Shown one piece after another: positions 3,160-25,382 of a DNA stretch of 64,000 nt. The notes below the pieces were generated by a model. It was not told the DNA's origin. It was given only the letters and a program-made list of their open reading frames with translations, and ran no database searches. The stretch comes from a virus (lineage: Duplodnaviria > Caudoviricetes): IMG/VR virus record IMGVR_UViG_3300032075_000001, positions 11,382 to 75,381 of that record. One strand, written 5' to 3'. Within the stretch, counting starts at the first letter, position 1; each line of letters starts with the position of its first letter. The position numbers and the translations under genes were made by a program.

Positions 3160-4410
3160 ATGCCATCATCCCCTAAACTGGATTTACGCCAGATCCGTCT
3201 ACGCGACAGGTATCTGGCTGATTATCCAAATACAATCTACGGGCTCGGGGAATGGCGCAGATATGACAATGGAGTTTGGCCTGTCGTTCACGAATTACTG
3301 ATTCGCCGTGAGATCCAAGAATCAGTAATGGGCCAACGACAGGTAGCTATCAAAGTTGACAATGCTCTCATCAACTCCCTTTATAATCTTATCAAAGCTC
3401 ACAGATTTATTTCCGACAGCCAATTCGATCGAGATAAAGGCTTGCTTATATTTGACGATTGCACACTTGACTTCCTGACCGGAGAACGTCGTGGGCACTT
3501 GCCTGAGAATTATCGAACCTCGAAGTTGCCTTTTGCTTATGATCCTGACGCAACTTCGGATTGTTGGTTAAAGTTTCTGTTTGAAGTCGTCGGCGAAGAA
3601 GTAGCCAACTTCCTGCAAGAATTTGCGGGATATGCAATCACTGGATTAACAAAGTATGAGATAGCCGTTTGGTTGTATGGCCCTCCCGGTGGCGGCAAAT
3701 CTACATTTATCACCGGATTAGAGTCGATGTTAGGTGCGCAGTGTGGAGTACTCGGGCTATCGGATATTGAGACAAGTAACTTCGGCCTTACCAATCTCCC
3801 CGGCAAGACTCTGGTAATCTCGACTGAACAACCCGCCCATTTCATCAAATCCGCCCATATCGTCAACGCGCTTATTTCTGGTGAGAGAGTCACCGTAGAT
3901 CGTAAGTTCCGCGATCCTGTCACTTTCGCCTCTCAGTGCAAAATCCTCTGGGCGATGAATGAGCTGCCGCGAGTGGATGACAAAGGCGCTGGTATCTTTC
4001 GCCGAGTGAAACTGGTCCATTTCCCATCAATCGACGAAAACAAACGAGATCCGCGCGTGAAAGAGGAAATTCAAGTGTCCGGTATGGCAATCCTCAACTG
4101 GGCGCGAATCGGATTGCAGCGACTTCTTCAACGCGGACGATTCCAGATTCCCGACGTAGTTCAAGCGGCAACTGAGCACTATCGGATCAACAATGATATT
4201 CCGAGGATGTTTGTTGAGGAGCGTTGTGAGGCCGATTCTACTGGGAAAATTCAAGCACAAACTCTCTATGAAATGTACCGAGAATGGTGCTCCGATACGG
4301 GCCATAAGCCCCTTGCCTCGCCCCGCTTCTCCGAAGAAATGCAACGCCTTGGATTCCATAAAGTCAAGATTGGCAACGTTTACTATCGAGGGCTGAAGCT
4401 GCGTGCATGA
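3160..4410 (+). CDS. D5/P4-primase-family SF3 helicase (no primase domain)
   Basis: LLIFDDCTLD..TGERRGHLPENYRTSKLPFAYDPDA, Walker A GPPGGGKST, WAMNELP, IFRRVKLVHF and C-terminal YYRGLKL. Confidence 0.85.
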   Translation: MPSSPKLDLRQIRLRDRYLADYPNTIYGLGEWRRYDNGVWPVVHELLIRREIQESVMGQRQVAIKVDNALINSLYNLIKAHRFISDSQFDRDKGLLIFDDCTLDFLTGERRGHLPENYRTSKLPFAYDPDATSDCWLKFLFEVVGEEVANFLQEFAGYAITGLTKYEIAVWLYGPPGGGKSTFITGLESMLGAQCGVLGLSDIETSNFGLTNLPGKTLVISTEQPAHFIKSAHIVNALISGERVTVDRKFRDPVTFASQCKILWAMNELPRVDDKGAGIFRRVKLVHFPSIDENKRDPRVKEEIQVSGMAILNWARIGLQRLLQRGRFQIPDVVQAATEHYRINNDIPRMFVEERCEADSTGKIQAQTLYEMYREWCSDTGHKPLASPRFSEEMQRLGFHKVKIGNVYYRGLKLRA

Positions 4411-15228: not shown

Positions 15229-15317
15229 TGCTGGCGGAAGGACTCGAACCTTCATCACGCCCTAATCCGGGGCTTACGGATTATAAGTCCGCCGCACTGC
15301 CATTGTGCTACGCCAGC
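15229..15317 (-). tRNA. tRNA with UAU anticodon (Ile) and a long variable arm
   Basis: Cloverleaf: acceptor GCTGGCG/CGCCAGC, D stem GCAC/GTGC, anticodon stem GCGGA/TCCGT with loop CT-TAT-AA, 22-nt variable arm with GCCC/GGGC stem, T arm GAAGG-TTCGAGT-CCTTC, A73; CCA not encoded. Confidence 0.85.
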
Positions 15318-19638: not shown

Positions 19639-20313
19639 ATGGACAACGCACTAGACCGCGACACTGCTGGTAGTATTGCTCACAACGCAAGTGCTATCGT
19701 TAAACTGCAAGGTGAGATTGCCAATGCTGCTGATCTGATCAGGGTGTTGGATTCACTACCGCTAGGCGAGGCAACTATAACGGTTTCTACTTTCGTTCGA
19801 CAGGAACCTTACTCTTGCGCCATTTCAAACGCCTCGGCGATTTGCTTACTACGCGAGTCGATTGAGATGAAGCAGCAATACATTAAGACTCTCAGTGACT
19901 GGCTGCGATCTGCGTTGAACGAATAGCAGCGCACATACCCGTCAAGTTCTATTGTATACTGCGCGACGATGGACACCGTTCCTGAATATCCCTTCGACCT
20001 TTTGTCGAGAATCCGTGAGCGAATCGTTAAAGACGTTGACGCGAATGGTAGAACTTATCGCTGCTCGTCTGAACTTTCAACCGCGTTTGCCGGATGGAGC
20101 CACGAGCAGATTGATGAATGGGCCATTGAGCACGGTTTGGTAATCATCGCTCAACCCGATCGTCGAATTGTAATCATGCGCGTTACGCCGGATAGCTTAG
20201 CGCCGTTGATAGCCATCGTCGGGAAAACTGAGGCGCTTGAGCTTCAACAGTTTGCGCGTGAGCGCGTACGTGCAGAAGTAGACGCGATGGACTGGTCGGA
20301 CATTATCGAATGA
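19639..20313 (+). other. Two hypothetical genes (19639-19926 and 19969-20313) preceding TerL
   Basis: GGAGG RBS before 19639; 20313 overlaps the TerL start. Confidence 0.6.
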
Positions 20314-22709
20314 GCGACGATCTCAATCTCCCACCATCCCTCCGTCTCAAGCACCTCTGGCCCATCGAGGACAAGCTGGAGGATGCGCGGCGACAGCGAC
20401 TCAAGGGCGGCGGGTTGATTCGTCCCGCTCTTCACGAAGCGCAGAAGAAGATGAAAGCTGAAGCGCGCAGGTTCAATGTTGCTGCGTTAGGCCGACGCGC
20501 GGGTAAGTCAGTATTCGGTCAGGATGTCAGTGGCGACTATCTCATGGCGGGTTGGCCTGTCGGGTGGTTCGCACCCTCATACAAGATTCTCGCAGATAGC
20601 TGGCGCGACTTACAACGAGTGTTCGCTCCAGTGACAGTGGACAAATCCACGCAGGAGCATCGACTGGAACTCTCGACGAAAGGGGTGCTGGAGTGCTGGT
20701 CGCTGGACAATCCCGACGCAGGTAGAAGTCGCAAGTACAAGCTGGTGATCGTTGACGAAGCAGCCCTCGTGCGTTATCTGGGAGATGCATGGCAAGCGTC
20801 AATTCGACCCACTCTCACTGACTATCAAGGTGATGCGTGGTTCCTCTCCACTCCACGTGGCTCGAACTTTTTCCGCACGATCTACAACTGGGGACAAGAT
20901 CCACTCAAAGACGAATGGCGCTCGTGGCAGATGCCGTCGTCGGTCAATACTACCCTCACCGATCTCGACAAAGAGATCGAAGCGGCGCGATTGGAACTGC
21001 CGGAGCGCATCTTTCGACAAGAGTATCTGGCTGAGTTCATCGACGACGCGGGTGGAGTGTTTAGACGAGTGCTCGAATCAGCTTGTGCCACTGCTCAAGA
21101 CTCAGCCCTCGATGGACATAACTACCTGATCGGAATCGACTGGGGCAAGTATAACGATTTCACGGTGCTGAGTGTAATTGACGTGACGACGAAGGAGTTG
21201 GTCTACGTGGATCGCTTCAATCAGATCGACTACACCGTGCAGATTGAGAGGTTGCGCACGCTCGCCACGAAGTTTAAGACGAAGACTCTCATCCCTGAGC
21301 ACAACTCCATCGGCATTCCGCTGATTGAGCAACTCCAGCGTGAAGGCTACAACGTCCACCCATTTACGACCACGAATGCGTCTAAAGCTGAAGCGATAGA
21401 CTCGCTCGCGCTTGCGTTGGAGAAAGGCGATTTGCGCATAATTGATAACCCAGTACTGATTGCTGAATTGCAAGCCTATGAAGCTGAGAGATTGCCGAGT
21501 GGGATGCTGAGATATTCGAGCCCGGAAGGTTATCACGATGACTGTTTGCCGCAGGGAACGCTGATTAAAACATTGACTGGCTATCGTCCAATTGAAGAAG
21601 TCCAACCCGGTGATCAGGTGCTTACTCATCGCGGTCGCTATATGCCCGTAGAGAGGGCGATTACCAAGCCCTTCTCGGGCCTGTTTTATGATTGTAAATT
21701 TAGAAATCAGCTAGAACTGTCGCTGAGCCACAATCACCCAATATTGGCTGTCTGCCGCGACTACACCGGCGATGTCTCTGGTCCATTTACACGCGAGCAG
21801 TGGGTATTACCGGGCGACTGGCGTAAATCTTACCGTGCGGTAACGGTAGTTGAATCTCCAGTACTGCGTGTTGGCGATGTACTGACAGAACGTGAGTTTT
21901 ACACCAATGGGAAATGCGCGGTGAATATCAAGTTGCGAGAACTGCAACTTGATGAAGGATTTGCAAGCTTGCTCGGGCGCTTTCTTGCCGATGGTCACTG
22001 TTCCAATTCTTCGGGCTGGACCATGAGCCTCGCATTTAACGTTAAAGATGTGCATTCGATTGAGTACTTTCGCTACTATCTCAACTTGCTGAGAATTTCT
22101 AATAGAGCGGAGAAGGCGCGAAGTAACTGCGTGGCCTTAACGTTTTCCAGTAAGCTATTATGGCATGCCCTGAAGACCTGTTATTCATCCTCCGGCGAGA
22201 AACAGCTCCCGCCTTACTTTCACCGTTTACAAGTTCACGGTAAAACAGTGGTAGATGAATGGTTGGCTGGCGATGGTTGGCACCGTCCTCCACACGTAAC
22301 GCAACCGAACGGCGTTACGGTTCAGTCTCCCGGCTACACGATAGGTGCGACCACAAGTGCGCGACTGGCTTTAGGAATGCGAGATCTAGCTCTCGCAAAT
22401 GGGCTATACGCAACGGTAAGAAAATATGAGCGGCGGCGTTACGAAAAGTCTACTAAGCCTCAATATTGGGTTACGATAAAAGAAGACGGTTCCGAGAATA
22501 ATCATTCCCGAAAGCTCTCTCCGGTTAGTTACGGCTCTCCCGTGGAGACTATTGCCGAACGGCAATTTGAAGGCACGGTCTATAATCTTCAAGTTGCCGA
22601 AGATAGATCATTTATAGCGAATGGCATCGTGGTCCATAATTGCGTCATCAGCCTCGCCCTCGCATGGCACGGAGCCAGCATCAGGCCGAGACGGGTGCTG
22701 TATGCGTAG
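20310..22709 (+). CDS. terL: Terminase large subunit, intein-containing
   Basis: GRRAGKS Walker A, LVIVDEAA Walker B, STPRGSNFF, IGIDWGKYNDFTV and GYHDD|CVISLALAW nuclease motifs. Confidence 0.95.
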   Translation: MSDDLNLPPSLRLKHLWPIEDKLEDARRQRLKGGGLIRPALHEAQKKMKAEARRFNVAALGRRAGKSVFGQDVSGDYLMAGWPVGWFAPSYKILADSWRDLQRVFAPVTVDKSTQEHRLELSTKGVLECWSLDNPDAGRSRKYKLVIVDEAALVRYLGDAWQASIRPTLTDYQGDAWFLSTPRGSNFFRTIYNWGQDPLKDEWRSWQMPSSVNTTLTDLDKEIEAARLELPERIFRQEYLAEFIDDAGGVFRRVLESACATAQDSALDGHNYLIGIDWGKYNDFTVLSVIDVTTKELVYVDRFNQIDYTVQIERLRTLATKFKTKTLIPEHNSIGIPLIEQLQREGYNVHPFTTTNASKAEAIDSLALALEKGDLRIIDNPVLIAELQAYEAERLPSGMLRYSSPEGYHDDCLPQGTLIKTLTGYRPIEEVQPGDQVLTHRGRYMPVERAITKPFSGLFYDCKFRNQLELSLSHNHPILAVCRDYTGDVSGPFTREQWVLPGDWRKSYRAVTVVESPVLRVGDVLTEREFYTNGKCAVNIKLRELQLDEGFASLLGRFLADGHCSNSSGWTMSLAFNVKDVHSIEYFRYYLNLLRISNRAEKARSNCVALTFSSKLLWHALKTCYSSSGEKQLPPYFHRLQVHGKTVVDEWLAGDGWHRPPHVTQPNGVTVQSPGYTIGATTSARLALGMRDLALANGLYATVRKYERRRYEKSTKPQYWVTIKEDGSENNHSRKLSPVSYGSPVETIAERQFEGTVYNLQVAEDRSFIANGIVVHNCVISLALAWHGASIRPRRVLYA
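21543..22640 (+). mobile_element. Intein (366 aa) with a LAGLIDADG homing endonuclease
   Basis: Starts CLPQGTLIKT..GYRPIEEVQPGDQVLTHRG; LLGRFLADG and EWLAGDGW motifs; ends VYNLQVAEDRSFIANGIVVHN followed by Cys(+1). Confidence 0.95.
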
Positions 22710-24080: not shown

Positions 24081-24109
24081 TTGACAAGATGTTGTGCACA
24101 GTGTATTGT
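24081..24109 (+). promoter_or_regulatory. Sigma70-like promoter with an operator
   Basis: TTGACA 24081-24086, 17-nt spacer, TATTGT 24104-24109; ACAAGATGTTGT at 24084-24095. Confidence 0.75.
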
Positions 24110-24142
24110 TCCTTTTCTAAATCTTAATCGTTGGAGAAGGAA

Positions 24143-24874
24143 ATGCCAAAACTACATCAAATCATCGCTATCGAAGAAGACGCGAAGAACAAGATAGGAT
24201 CTGTCACCGCAATGCTGGAACGGGAAGCGTTAAAGCCCGATTCGTTTAACGGACTAGCTCGCACGTATCGACCAAAGGACGAAGGCGGTGAACCGCTACC
24301 TCCTGAACATAAGCGAGTACAGTTAGACGCGCGTAAAGAAATTGACAAGTTCATCAAAGCCAAGACTGAATTGATCGACCTGACTGCGACGAAGGACTGG
24401 GCCAACATGGAAGCGCGGGCCGATGTGGAAGTTAACGGTCAGGTGATTCTTATAGCGGTACCTGTTACTCATTTGCTATTCCTAAGCAAGCAGTTGGACC
24501 ACTTTCGTAACTACGTCGAGAAACTGCCTACGTTGGACGAATCCGAGGAGTGGAAAGTAGACCCATCAACCGGACAGTGGCGTACGGATATTACAACTCG
24601 CCACCGTACCGAGAAGATAGTTGACTTTAAGACTGTCTCAGAAGCGACGAAGGAACACCCGGCTCAGGTGGCCCAACTAACTAAAGACGTAACAGTCGGC
24701 TACTGGGACCAGACTAAGCTGTCGGCGGCGCTTCCCGTGCCGCAGAAAGAGGAACTGATTACGAAGATTGAGGAACTGCTTAGCGCGGTCAAGTTAGCAC
24801 GCGGCAAGGCCAACGAGGTCGAAGCTCCGAGGCAAAAGATCGCTGACACGTTATTTGAATACGTGTTAGGCTAG
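24143..24874 (+). CDS. Uncharacterised 243-aa protein, recalled as the DUF7873-type family
   Basis: GGAGAAGG RBS then ATG 24143; MPKLHQIIAIE, RTYRPKDEGGEPLPPE, TATKDWAN..ARADV, LLFLSKQL, EATKEHPAQV and KLARGKAN match my recollection of a widespread bacterial and phage family. The family name needs HMM confirmation. Confidence 0.75.
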   Translation: MPKLHQIIAIEEDAKNKIGSVTAMLEREALKPDSFNGLARTYRPKDEGGEPLPPEHKRVQLDARKEIDKFIKAKTELIDLTATKDWANMEARADVEVNGQVILIAVPVTHLLFLSKQLDHFRNYVEKLPTLDESEEWKVDPSTGQWRTDITTRHRTEKIVDFKTVSEATKEHPAQVAQLTKDVTVGYWDQTKLSAALPVPQKEELITKIEELLSAVKLARGKANEVEAPRQKIADTLFEYVLG

Positions 24875-24986
24875 CGAGTGTGGAAGTTTTAATCTGAGGC
24901 TTAGGCTGAACATGAGAATCAACCTATTCCACAGAATCTTAAACCGATCACTATCTGAATGAAGGTAAGCTAAAGCAAAACTAACA

Positions 24987-25066
24987 GTCCTATGCGTGGG
25001 TTCGATTCCCACCGGACGCTCCAAATATTACTTATGCGTCCGTAGTTCAGCGGTAGAACATGGGAC
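24987..25066 (+). ncRNA. Circularly permuted tRNA-like element (Gly-type acceptor, no anticodon loop)
   Basis: 3' half: GTCCTA-TGC-GTGGG-TTCGATT-CCCAC-CGGACGC-T-CCA (24987-25023); 12-nt AT linker; 5' half: GCGTCCG-TA-GTTC-AGCGGTA-GAAC-A-TGGGAC (25036-25066). The acceptor has 7 Watson-Crick pairs, and the D, T and anticodon stems all pair. Confidence 0.85.
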
Positions 25067-25117
25067 ATTGAAACTTAGCGCAATGGCAAGCCGGACACGG
25101 ATATAGATGATCAAAAC

Positions 25118-25190
25118 CGCGACATAGCTCAACTGGCAGAGCGCAAGACTTATAATCTTGAGGTCGCAGGTTCGACTCCTGCTATCGCAA
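25118..25190 (+). tRNA. tRNA-Ile(UAU), class I
   Basis: D stem GCTC/GAGC, anticodon stem CAAGA/TCTTG with loop CT-TAT-AA, variable loop AGGTC, T arm GCAGG-TTCGACT-CCTGC; acceptor CGCGACA/TATCGCA has two C-A mismatches; CCA not encoded. Confidence 0.8.
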
Positions 25191-25198
25191 ACTCAATG

Positions 25199-25238
25199 GG
25201 GCGGGTGGCTAGGGTAAGCTGCTCGCCCTGTAATCTTC
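25199..25238 (+). terminator. GC-rich hairpin, probable terminator
   Basis: GGGCGGGTGGCT/AGCTGCTCGCCC 12-bp stem (with GU pairs) followed by TGTAATCTTC. Confidence 0.5.
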
Positions 25239-25243
25239 TCGGG

Positions 25244-25273
25244 TTGACAATATCTTGTGGAACGGGCTATTCT
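25244..25273 (+). promoter_or_regulatory. Sigma70-like promoter with an operator
   Basis: TTGACA 25244-25249, 18-nt spacer, TATTCT 25268-25273; ACAATATCTTGT at 25247-25258. Confidence 0.65.
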
Positions 25274-25276
25274 AAT

Positions 25277-25382
25277 CCCCGTCTCGCTGCTGTGTGCAAA
25301 GAGGAAGACGCCGCCTGCCAGTCAGGTGCTCCGTAAAACGGAACTAAGGGATCGCGGTTCGAGTCCGCGTCGGCGGGACACC
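25277..25382 (+). ncRNA. Degenerate tRNA-like RNA
   Basis: T arm CGCGG-TTCGAGT-CCGCG (25353-25369), hairpins CGCCT/AGGTG and TCCGT/ACGGA, partial acceptor CCCGTC/GGCGGG; no canonical D arm. Confidence 0.4.

Follow-up and report, generated by a model that had tools for sequence, protein, structure and literature searches.

The 64,000-nucleotide stretch of Caudoviricetes DNA analysed here (the window; IMG/VR record IMGVR_UViG_3300032075_000001) comes from a complete, 75.4-kb phage genome with direct terminal repeats, and at positions 24081–25238 it contains a gene for a DUF7873 protein followed directly by an RNA with an inside-out, tRNA-like module. An earlier note on this DNA had described the pair as a DUF7873-like gene and an anticodon-less mimic of tRNA-Gly, with a tRNA and a hairpin further downstream. 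The gene (24143–24874, plus strand, 243 aa) is confirmed as a full-length member of Pfam PF25283, matching profile positions 1–242 of 244 at 291.8 bits (gathering score 27; E 6.3e-87). It is preceded by a putative sigma-70-like promoter at 24081–24109 (plus strand; TTGACA, 17 nt, TATTGT), which agrees with the consensus at 10 of 12 positions, and the same consensus scan found no promoter-like site between the DUF7873 open reading frame and the RNA. The tRNA, with anticodon UAU, lies at 25118–25190 (plus strand; ARAGORN; Rfam tRNA model, 66.4 bits), and 3' of it stands a G+C-rich hairpin (25199–25228, plus strand) that sequence reading showed to be kept in relatives. This hairpin was not called as an intrinsic terminator and its U tract is poor; it is possibly the end of the transcription unit. 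Five close relatives (L091, L092, L094, L179 and L180; 67–82% protein identity) have the same layout and form, together with the window, a six-member subfamily.

Direct reading of the sequence bears out the permuted order of T arm, acceptor stem, CCA, linker and D arm at 24987–25066, all on the plus strand. The module opens with GUCCUA (24987–24992), the 3'-type strand of an anticodon-stem-like helix, which forms six base pairs, one of them G-U, with 25061–25066 and covaries in L094. The T arm (24996–25012) has a 5-bp stem and the loop UUCGAUU; its stem covaries, with 99% of cells paired in 28 sequences. It is followed at 25013–25023 by the acceptor 3' strand (25013–25019), in which all seven positions make Watson–Crick pairs with 25036–25042, then by a discriminator U (25020) and an encoded CCA (25021–25023). 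An A/U-rich linker of 12 nt (25024–25035), ending in UUAU, leads to the acceptor 5' strand (25036–25042), the dinucleotide UA and the D arm (25045–25059), whose 4-bp stem covaries and whose loop, AGCGGUA, contains GG. After a single A, the anticodon-like strand UGGGAC (25061–25066) continues into the conserved trailer motif AUUGAAACUUAG; this segment (25061–25079) is invariant in the six relatives and corresponds to positions 115–134 of the family model described below. UCCA is present in all six despite a linker that ranges from 8 to 29 nt, and the linker is probably removed, judging from these sequence features. The anticodon-stem-like helix does not close on a 7-nt loop and runs on into helices specific to the family.

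The existence of such a family emerges from a survey of DUF7873 loci. Nine cultured phages, with hosts in seven genera (Arthrobacter, Gordonia, Pseudanabaena, Ralstonia, Rhizobium, Vibrio and Klebsiella), carry a DUF7873 homologue, and in eight of them a sub-threshold match to the Rfam family YrlA, or a permuted T-arm/acceptor pattern, lies on the same strand 200–450 nt beyond it, where the annotation leaves a gap, usually within a tRNA cluster; in the ninth, Pam2, a pattern scan revealed two modules. Relatives score 29–38 bits against the YrlA model. The wider sample comprised eighty IMG/VR loci and eighty bacterial loci; a single-protein search of viral contigs for related loci returned nothing, whereas an alignment-based scan did find relatives. 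A strict pattern scan of 90 viral loci detected one module, or two, behind the gene in 82; typically there are two, about 150 nt apart.

A covariance model, R1, was built from a MAFFT alignment of the second module and its flanks in 28 unrelated viral loci, with the window left out. Its consensus contains 30 pairs, every one of which shows compensatory change, and pairing extends to 92.7% of all cells, as against 60% after shuffling (none of 500 shuffles reached the observed value) and 37–47% when the partners were slid. R1 matches the window at 24980–25079 with 70.2 bits (E 1.9e-15; model positions 40–134); this is its sole match in the whole 75-kb phage, and the true tRNAs of the window score only about 12 bits. 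By these sequence criteria the element almost certainly belongs to the DUF7873-associated RNA family. Furthermore, R1 locates the RNA downstream of the DUF7873 gene in 86 or more of the 88 usable loci from IMG/VR and beside it in all 79 usable bacterial loci, the eightieth contig being too short. In five whole bacterial genomes there is one full-length R1 match each, adjoining DUF7873 every time, and the remaining neighbour genes vary from genome to genome. One scan placed the pair in at least 580 bacterial species; it is also present in many phages, where it is sited among tRNA genes. Most members have in common the sequence motifs AUCGA, which is invariant, and UUAAACG. The recurrence of a T-arm-before-D-arm element with covarying stems, which the earlier note had put forward for checking, thus holds in viral and bacterial loci alike, and the protein–RNA pairing that it proposed stands; what it had missed is that two such modules, or heads, are normal in the family and that the same pair resides on bacterial chromosomes. 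Taken together, the co-occurrence makes a functional link between gene and RNA very probable. The family is absent from Rfam (Rfam 15), and neither that release nor the searchable literature on DUF7873 or on YrlA-like RNAs in phages yielded a description of the pair.

Two annotations in cultured phages may be mentioned alongside. In Klebsiella phage FBKp24 (MW394391; L010), a GenBank 'tRNA-Sup-TTA' at 3266–3345 overlaps the start of head 2 of the RNA (R1 match 3299–3418); the tRNA-like module probably misled the annotation here. In Gordonia phage Phendrix (L003), an annotation gap at 572–1100 holds an Rfam match to transfer-messenger RNA (tmRNA; 89 bits, E 3e-33), in the same tRNA cluster as the DUF7873–RNA pair of that phage.

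The whole RNA extends well beyond the permuted module. Its predicted limits in the window, 24875–25117 on the plus strand, follow a block conserved in the six relatives that reaches from 3–5 nt past the stop codon to the 5' end of the tRNA and that in the window starts by 24880. The roughly 110 nt that had been noted as non-coding sequence belong to this RNA and are conserved and structured in all six; the permuted element as first described is real, and the RNA that carries it measures about 240 nt instead of 80. From the six sequences RNAalifold predicts 53 pairs, with compensatory changes in 22. Domain 1 is an irregular, nearly invariant hairpin (24893–24935, plus strand) whose 5' strand contains three hexamers of the form CUNAGG. 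Domain 2 consists of an outer helix, inner helices and the single tRNA-like head; in the outer helix, GAUCA (24946–24950) pairs with UGAUC (25108–25112), both on the plus strand, with compensatory changes (alignment columns 73–78 with 256–261), and the RNAalifold-derived 3' strand ends 5 nt before the tRNA.

The immediate proximity of this block to the stop codon, together with the lack of an intervening promoter-like site, is what would be expected if the RNA formed the 3' end of the DUF7873 mRNA and acted in cis, a CCA-ended tRNA-like structure protecting or regulating the message much as viral tRNA-like structures do, without any role as a separate RNA; after cleavage by RNase P, the 5' piece could indeed remain on the mRNA. 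However, the RNA is fully conserved where it lies on the opposite strand (L103 and L057) or 1.5 kb away (L097), exceptions which indicate a gene in its own right and not merely a 3' untranslated region, and about 330–380 nt with two heads and covarying long-range helices would be excessive for a stabiliser. A purely cis-acting role is accordingly regarded as quite unlikely.

Two-headed members of the family measure about 330–390 nt, compared with the one-headed variant of about 240 nt in the window, where the model match is local and the equivalent outer helices differ in sequence. The domain-1 hairpin of the window resembles the long stem that bears head 1 in two-headed relatives, with a 9-nt loop in place of that head, and the best match of the family leader profile in the whole window, a weak one (E 0.034), falls on it at 24887–24914. 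Exact-pattern scans for the domain-1 motif gave 0 matches in viral and metagenome contigs. Domain-1 stems without a head also occur in L035, L069 and L070, so that loss of head 1 appears to be recurrent and domain 2 to be the constant core. On comparison of sequence and layout, the window RNA is a divergent one-headed subfamily of the DUF7873-associated RNA, set apart from two-headed members by its retained UCCA and by direct fusion to a tRNA of changing anticodon. The variant is informative as to what the RNA can do without, since it has lost head 1 and retained the domain-1 stem and head 2.

Among described RNAs the closest counterpart is YrlA. Apart from Y RNAs, whose defining feature is their partner Ro60, no bacterial RNAs with an inside-out tRNA module were known. 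When the threshold is relaxed, the best Rfam match of the window element is YrlA (RF02553), covering all 114 model positions at E 1.1e-5 and 34.3 bits, about half the gathering score of 69; no Rfam family is reached at its gathering score, and comparison with the YrlA, tmRNA and tRNA models therefore leads, as had been supposed, to no already described family. The resemblance to YrlA, a class of Y RNAs from bacteria and mycobacteriophages (partner Ro60/Rsr), extends to the module itself (T arm, acceptor-like stem, D arm), to the anticodon-side stem that extends into a helix, which in YrlA is protein-binding, and to the adjoining gene for a partner protein, with two or more RNAs or modules in many loci. 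The differences are equally consistent: the partner is DUF7873 and not a TROVE protein, and the flanking domains are specific to the family (the hexamer-repeat stem, AUCGA, UUAAACG).

It could nevertheless be argued that the RNA is an ordinary YrlA-class Y RNA that uses host Ro60 in trans and that DUF7873 is an unrelated neighbour. The full-length YrlA match points in this direction, as does the presence of a TROVE protein in four of the five bacterial genomes with the pair. Against it stand the low score and the non-canonical mismatches of the window element at the Ro-binding stem positions of the YrlA model. The Ro-binding motif that PMC4201824 gives for YrlA, GNCGAA(N)G in the terminal stem (5' strand), was not seen on reading 24875–25117, nor was GNCGAA(N0–1)G in 24875–24990. 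Moreover, no TROVE/Ro60 gene occurs in the complete 75-kb phage, which extends to the whole genome what had been noted for the window, and none occurs in one complete bacterial genome with the pair. In the other four genomes the TROVE genes lie at distant loci, with core-only tRNA-like matches near them in two, and the full-length RNA stands beside DUF7873 only. Since TROVE is either distant, in two genomes with modules of its own nearby, or absent, the Ro60 and DUF7873–RNA systems appear to be distinct and to coexist in the same genomes. The near-universal linkage to DUF7873 also exceeds chance neighbourhood, and a Y RNA served by Ro60 in trans is considered improbable here. As a separate observation, six or more core-only tRNA-like modules cluster around the TROVE gene of one bacterial genome (G005; G005:C22:75773–77564 and 85045–86914), which suggests a multi-Y-RNA locus; its DUF7873–RNA pair is on another contig.

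Other permuted or split tRNA-like molecules agree less well. With two-piece tmRNA (partner SmpB) the element has in common the order of 3' acceptor piece, intervening segment and 5' acceptor piece, the encoded CCA and, in its proposed form, two pieces held together by pairing as well as an anticodon-less domain with a small dedicated protein; it differs in having G3-C70 in the window and a full D arm, and in having neither a tag reading frame nor pseudoknots. The Rfam tmRNA_permuted model gives 16 bits against a gathering score of 47, ARAGORN finds no tmRNA, and G3-U70 occurs in 1 of 53 family members. Circularly permuted tRNA genes, as in Cyanidioschyzon merolae and Thermofilum pendens, give rise through a circular intermediate and the archaeal/eukaryal splicing endonuclease to decoding tRNAs. 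In them, too, the 3' half is encoded ahead of the 5' half, and a short linker separates CCA from position 1; the present element differs from them in its bacterial and phage setting, its conserved extra domains and its lack of an anticodon loop or bulge-helix-bulge.

That the halves might nonetheless be joined after transcription into a decoding tRNA finds a semblance of support in an in-silico join of trailer and leader, from which ARAGORN predicts a 'tRNA-Val(aac)'. This call requires a 158-nt intron and is an artefact of the forced join. Leader and trailer are conserved and together form covarying helices in place of an anticodon loop or a bulge-helix-bulge, no relative keeps the putative anticodon region as a 7-nt loop, and the phage encodes neither RtcB nor any other ligase. 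Neither ARAGORN nor the Rfam tRNA model (RF00005) calls the element as a cloverleaf with a 7-nt anticodon loop; in this region, ARAGORN and Rfam at gathering score detect the neighbouring tRNA(UAU) at 25118–25190 only. A true circularly permuted or split tRNA gene is thus hardly credible. Two further candidates, a phage attachment site (attP) or tRNA fragment and a set of decayed tandem tRNAs, were rejected, as they fail on conservation, covariation and DUF7873 linkage.

A further aspect concerns processing. Bacterial RNase P recognises a 12-bp acceptor/T stack, U-1, G+1 and a 3' RCCA. The window copy offers a 7-bp acceptor stem and a 5-bp T stem together with U-1, G+1 and UCCA, so that the RNase P determinants are present. 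A CCA-adding enzyme was not found in the phage genome. Among 53 non-redundant viral RNAs of the family, head 2 has G+1 in 47, U-1 in 37 and C74 in 46, and a full NCCA in 26, where chance would give about 1 in 64; in head 1, A73 is seen in 38 and NCCA in 22. A precedent is available in Mycobacterium smegmatis (Chen et al. 2014, PMC4201824): in vivo, RNase P cleaves its YrlA, whose acceptor stem likewise measures 7 bp, the RNA receives CCA, and both halves remain in the particle. These determinants and this precedent make a two-piece model reasonable for the window copy: cleavage at 25035/25036 and 25117/25118 into a two-piece, CCA-ended RNA is plausible, and the prospect that RNase P does cut the window copy is, by analogy with YrlA, rated slightly better than even. 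The conserved RNase P and CCA features of the family would in that case point to a specific processing pathway.

The glycine identity suggested in the earlier note did not hold up. It was founded on G1-C72, C2-G71 and G3-C70 with U73 and the encoded CCA, all of which the window copy indeed has, and which, apart from CCA, are the acceptor determinants of glycyl-tRNA synthetase (GlyRS) of the Escherichia coli type. As regards a chargeable, non-decoding tRNA-Gly mimic, serving for glycine transfer or as a charged decoy, the GCG combination is found in only two of the six close relatives, and across the 53 family members the first three acceptor pairs vary among 17 combinations. The variation among close relatives leaves glycine identity unsupported. 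In addition, the anticodon determinants of GlyRS (C35/C36) are absent and CCA is missing from half of the family. Glycylation of the window RNA is accordingly rated improbable, and the mimic as a whole very improbable indeed; an RNA that is non-decoding and has no conserved amino-acid identity is proposed instead. The roles that the earlier note had suggested, as an anti-defence decoy, in translation control or in glycine transfer, are conjectural.

Amino-acid features of the heads deserve a brief remark of their own. Head 1 of two-headed relatives (e.g. L018, 2284–2360) has a D arm of tRNA-Leu type, with Leu as the nearest isotype in 43 of 47; the D arm of head 2 is of a generic class-I kind, and position 73 of that head is U or G. 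Leucyl-tRNA synthetase does not need the anticodon, and head 1 would for that reason be chargeable in principle if cut open.

The 1352 DUF7873 homologues are nearly all 243–246 aa long, with 45–50% identity between phages and distant phyla; 27 positions are invariant among 33 sequences, including the polar residues E55, D85, N88, K116, D140, H172, Q175, D182 and R220. An AlphaFold 2 model (pLDDT 87) gave no Foldseek match against the PDB at E 0.001 or better, the top row being Pur-alpha at E 0.014 and a TM-score of about 0.12; a wide VIA-align search returned helical-hairpin matches only (Z 8.1 or less), a hidden Markov model search against PDB sequences nothing below E 0.2, and the ESM Atlas only unnamed viral clusters and DUF6847 (TM 0.48–0.63). 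The weak Pur-alpha rows, together with beta-beta-beta-beta-alpha units in the secondary structure, hint at a nucleic-acid-binding fold and are only a lead. Binding of the RNA by DUF7873, deduced from gene linkage alone, appears rather likely.

The protein could alternatively be an enzyme acting on the acceptor or elbow of tRNA, with the RNA as a pseudo-substrate or antitoxin-like regulator whose heads occupy the substrate site, in the manner of a type III toxin–antitoxin or a defence/counter-defence system. Such a role would suit the accessory distribution of the gene, which is patchy (35 of 61 sampled genomes of one genus, 0 of 14 model organisms) and includes many phages, the self-contained two-gene unit among unrelated neighbours, and the very strong conservation of DUF7873 with its invariant polar residues. 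It is less compatible with the lack of any DUF7873 match in PADLOC, NCBIfam and PHROGs models, with structural searches in which an enzyme-like fold was not found, and with gene order, the RNA standing 3' of the gene, whereas in known type III systems it precedes the gene. This regulatory alternative is unlikely on balance.

The best explanation of the locus, in which confidence and doubt are evenly balanced, is a non-coding RNA of about 240 nt with a YrlA-type head that forms a Ro60-independent particle with DUF7873. More generally, DUF7873 and its RNA probably constitute an undescribed RNA–protein particle built on tRNA mimicry, and not a glycine tRNA. In the mechanism suggested by the layout, the promoter at 24081 would co-transcribe DUF7873 and the RNA. 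Host RNase P, as the determinants and the YrlA precedent suggest, would then cleave just before G25036 and just before the tRNA that starts at 25118, the tRNA 5' processing defining the 3' end of the RNA, and exonucleases would trim the linker to the encoded UCCA; the two resulting pieces would stay joined through the acceptor, anticodon-like and outer helices. DUF7873 may sit on the sequence-conserved, non-tRNA helices, a step prompted by the strict linkage alone. Finally, and speculatively, the exposed head could engage a host factor with affinity for the elbow and acceptor end of tRNA, for instance an enzyme of processing or decay or a conflict enzyme directed at tRNA, which would make the particle a Ro60-independent analogue of Ro–Y RNA particles.

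Several points weigh against this reading. The homology of domain 1 of the window to that of the family depends on the weak leader match noted above, and an nhmmer profile of the domain-1 return strand missed the expected window position. The flanking helices of the window are not aligned to the family model, the match being local. Ro60 is encoded as well in four of the five bacterial genomes that have the pair, which leaves some room for a Ro60 link in trans. Processing is perhaps not general, because half of the family is without a full NCCA and many acceptor stems are closed by a 7-nt loop. An RNA-binding fold is not recognisable in DUF7873 by Foldseek or VIA-align. Transcription, ends, binding and processing are deduced for all members of a family that is known here from sequence alone; a search for sequencing runs listed DNA runs only, one of them possibly from the source sample.

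If the pair does form a particle, it would represent a second, independent use of tRNA mimicry, with the same inside-out RNA design tied to a different, highly conserved partner of unknown fold, and it would offer a first functional handle on DUF7873. A more comprehensive reading joins these elements: a Ro60-independent ribonucleoprotein whose working ligand is the RNase P-made, two-piece, CCA-ended top half, possibly aminoacylated, and which phages would carry in their tRNA clusters as a means of manipulating or protecting the tRNA machinery of the host during infection. This extended version is a distant prospect and would, if true, define a new class of tRNA-mimic particle common to cells and viruses.

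The tRNA that follows the RNA presents a pattern of its own. It is orthologous in the window and the five close relatives (mean identity 81%), all six having in common a C6-A67 mismatch, and yet the six orthologues have six anticodons (UAU in the window, and CAU, UGU, AUU, UGA and GAA), the most variable columns being positions 34–35. From these comparisons the anticodon looks like a target of diversifying selection; since the tRNA body stays constant, such change would be odd for normal decoding. A blastn search of the region against cultured phages returned the tRNAs as the only matches.

Further features of the window lie outside the pair. A second tRNA(UAU), at 15229–15317 on the minus strand (Rfam tRNA, 67.7 bits), has a 19-nt insertion in the variable region, which is unusual for tRNA-Ile. 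A second promoter-like site (25244–25273) is followed by a perfect T arm with a partial acceptor-like stem (25311–25376, plus strand), possibly a tRNA remnant; the stretch 25244–25376 has a weak mascRNA-like Rfam match (17.5 bits) and a folding z-score of -0.09, and is absent from close relatives. Upstream, the gene for the large terminase subunit (20310–22709, plus strand) is split by an intein, with Hint and intein splicing domains at about residues 411–777.

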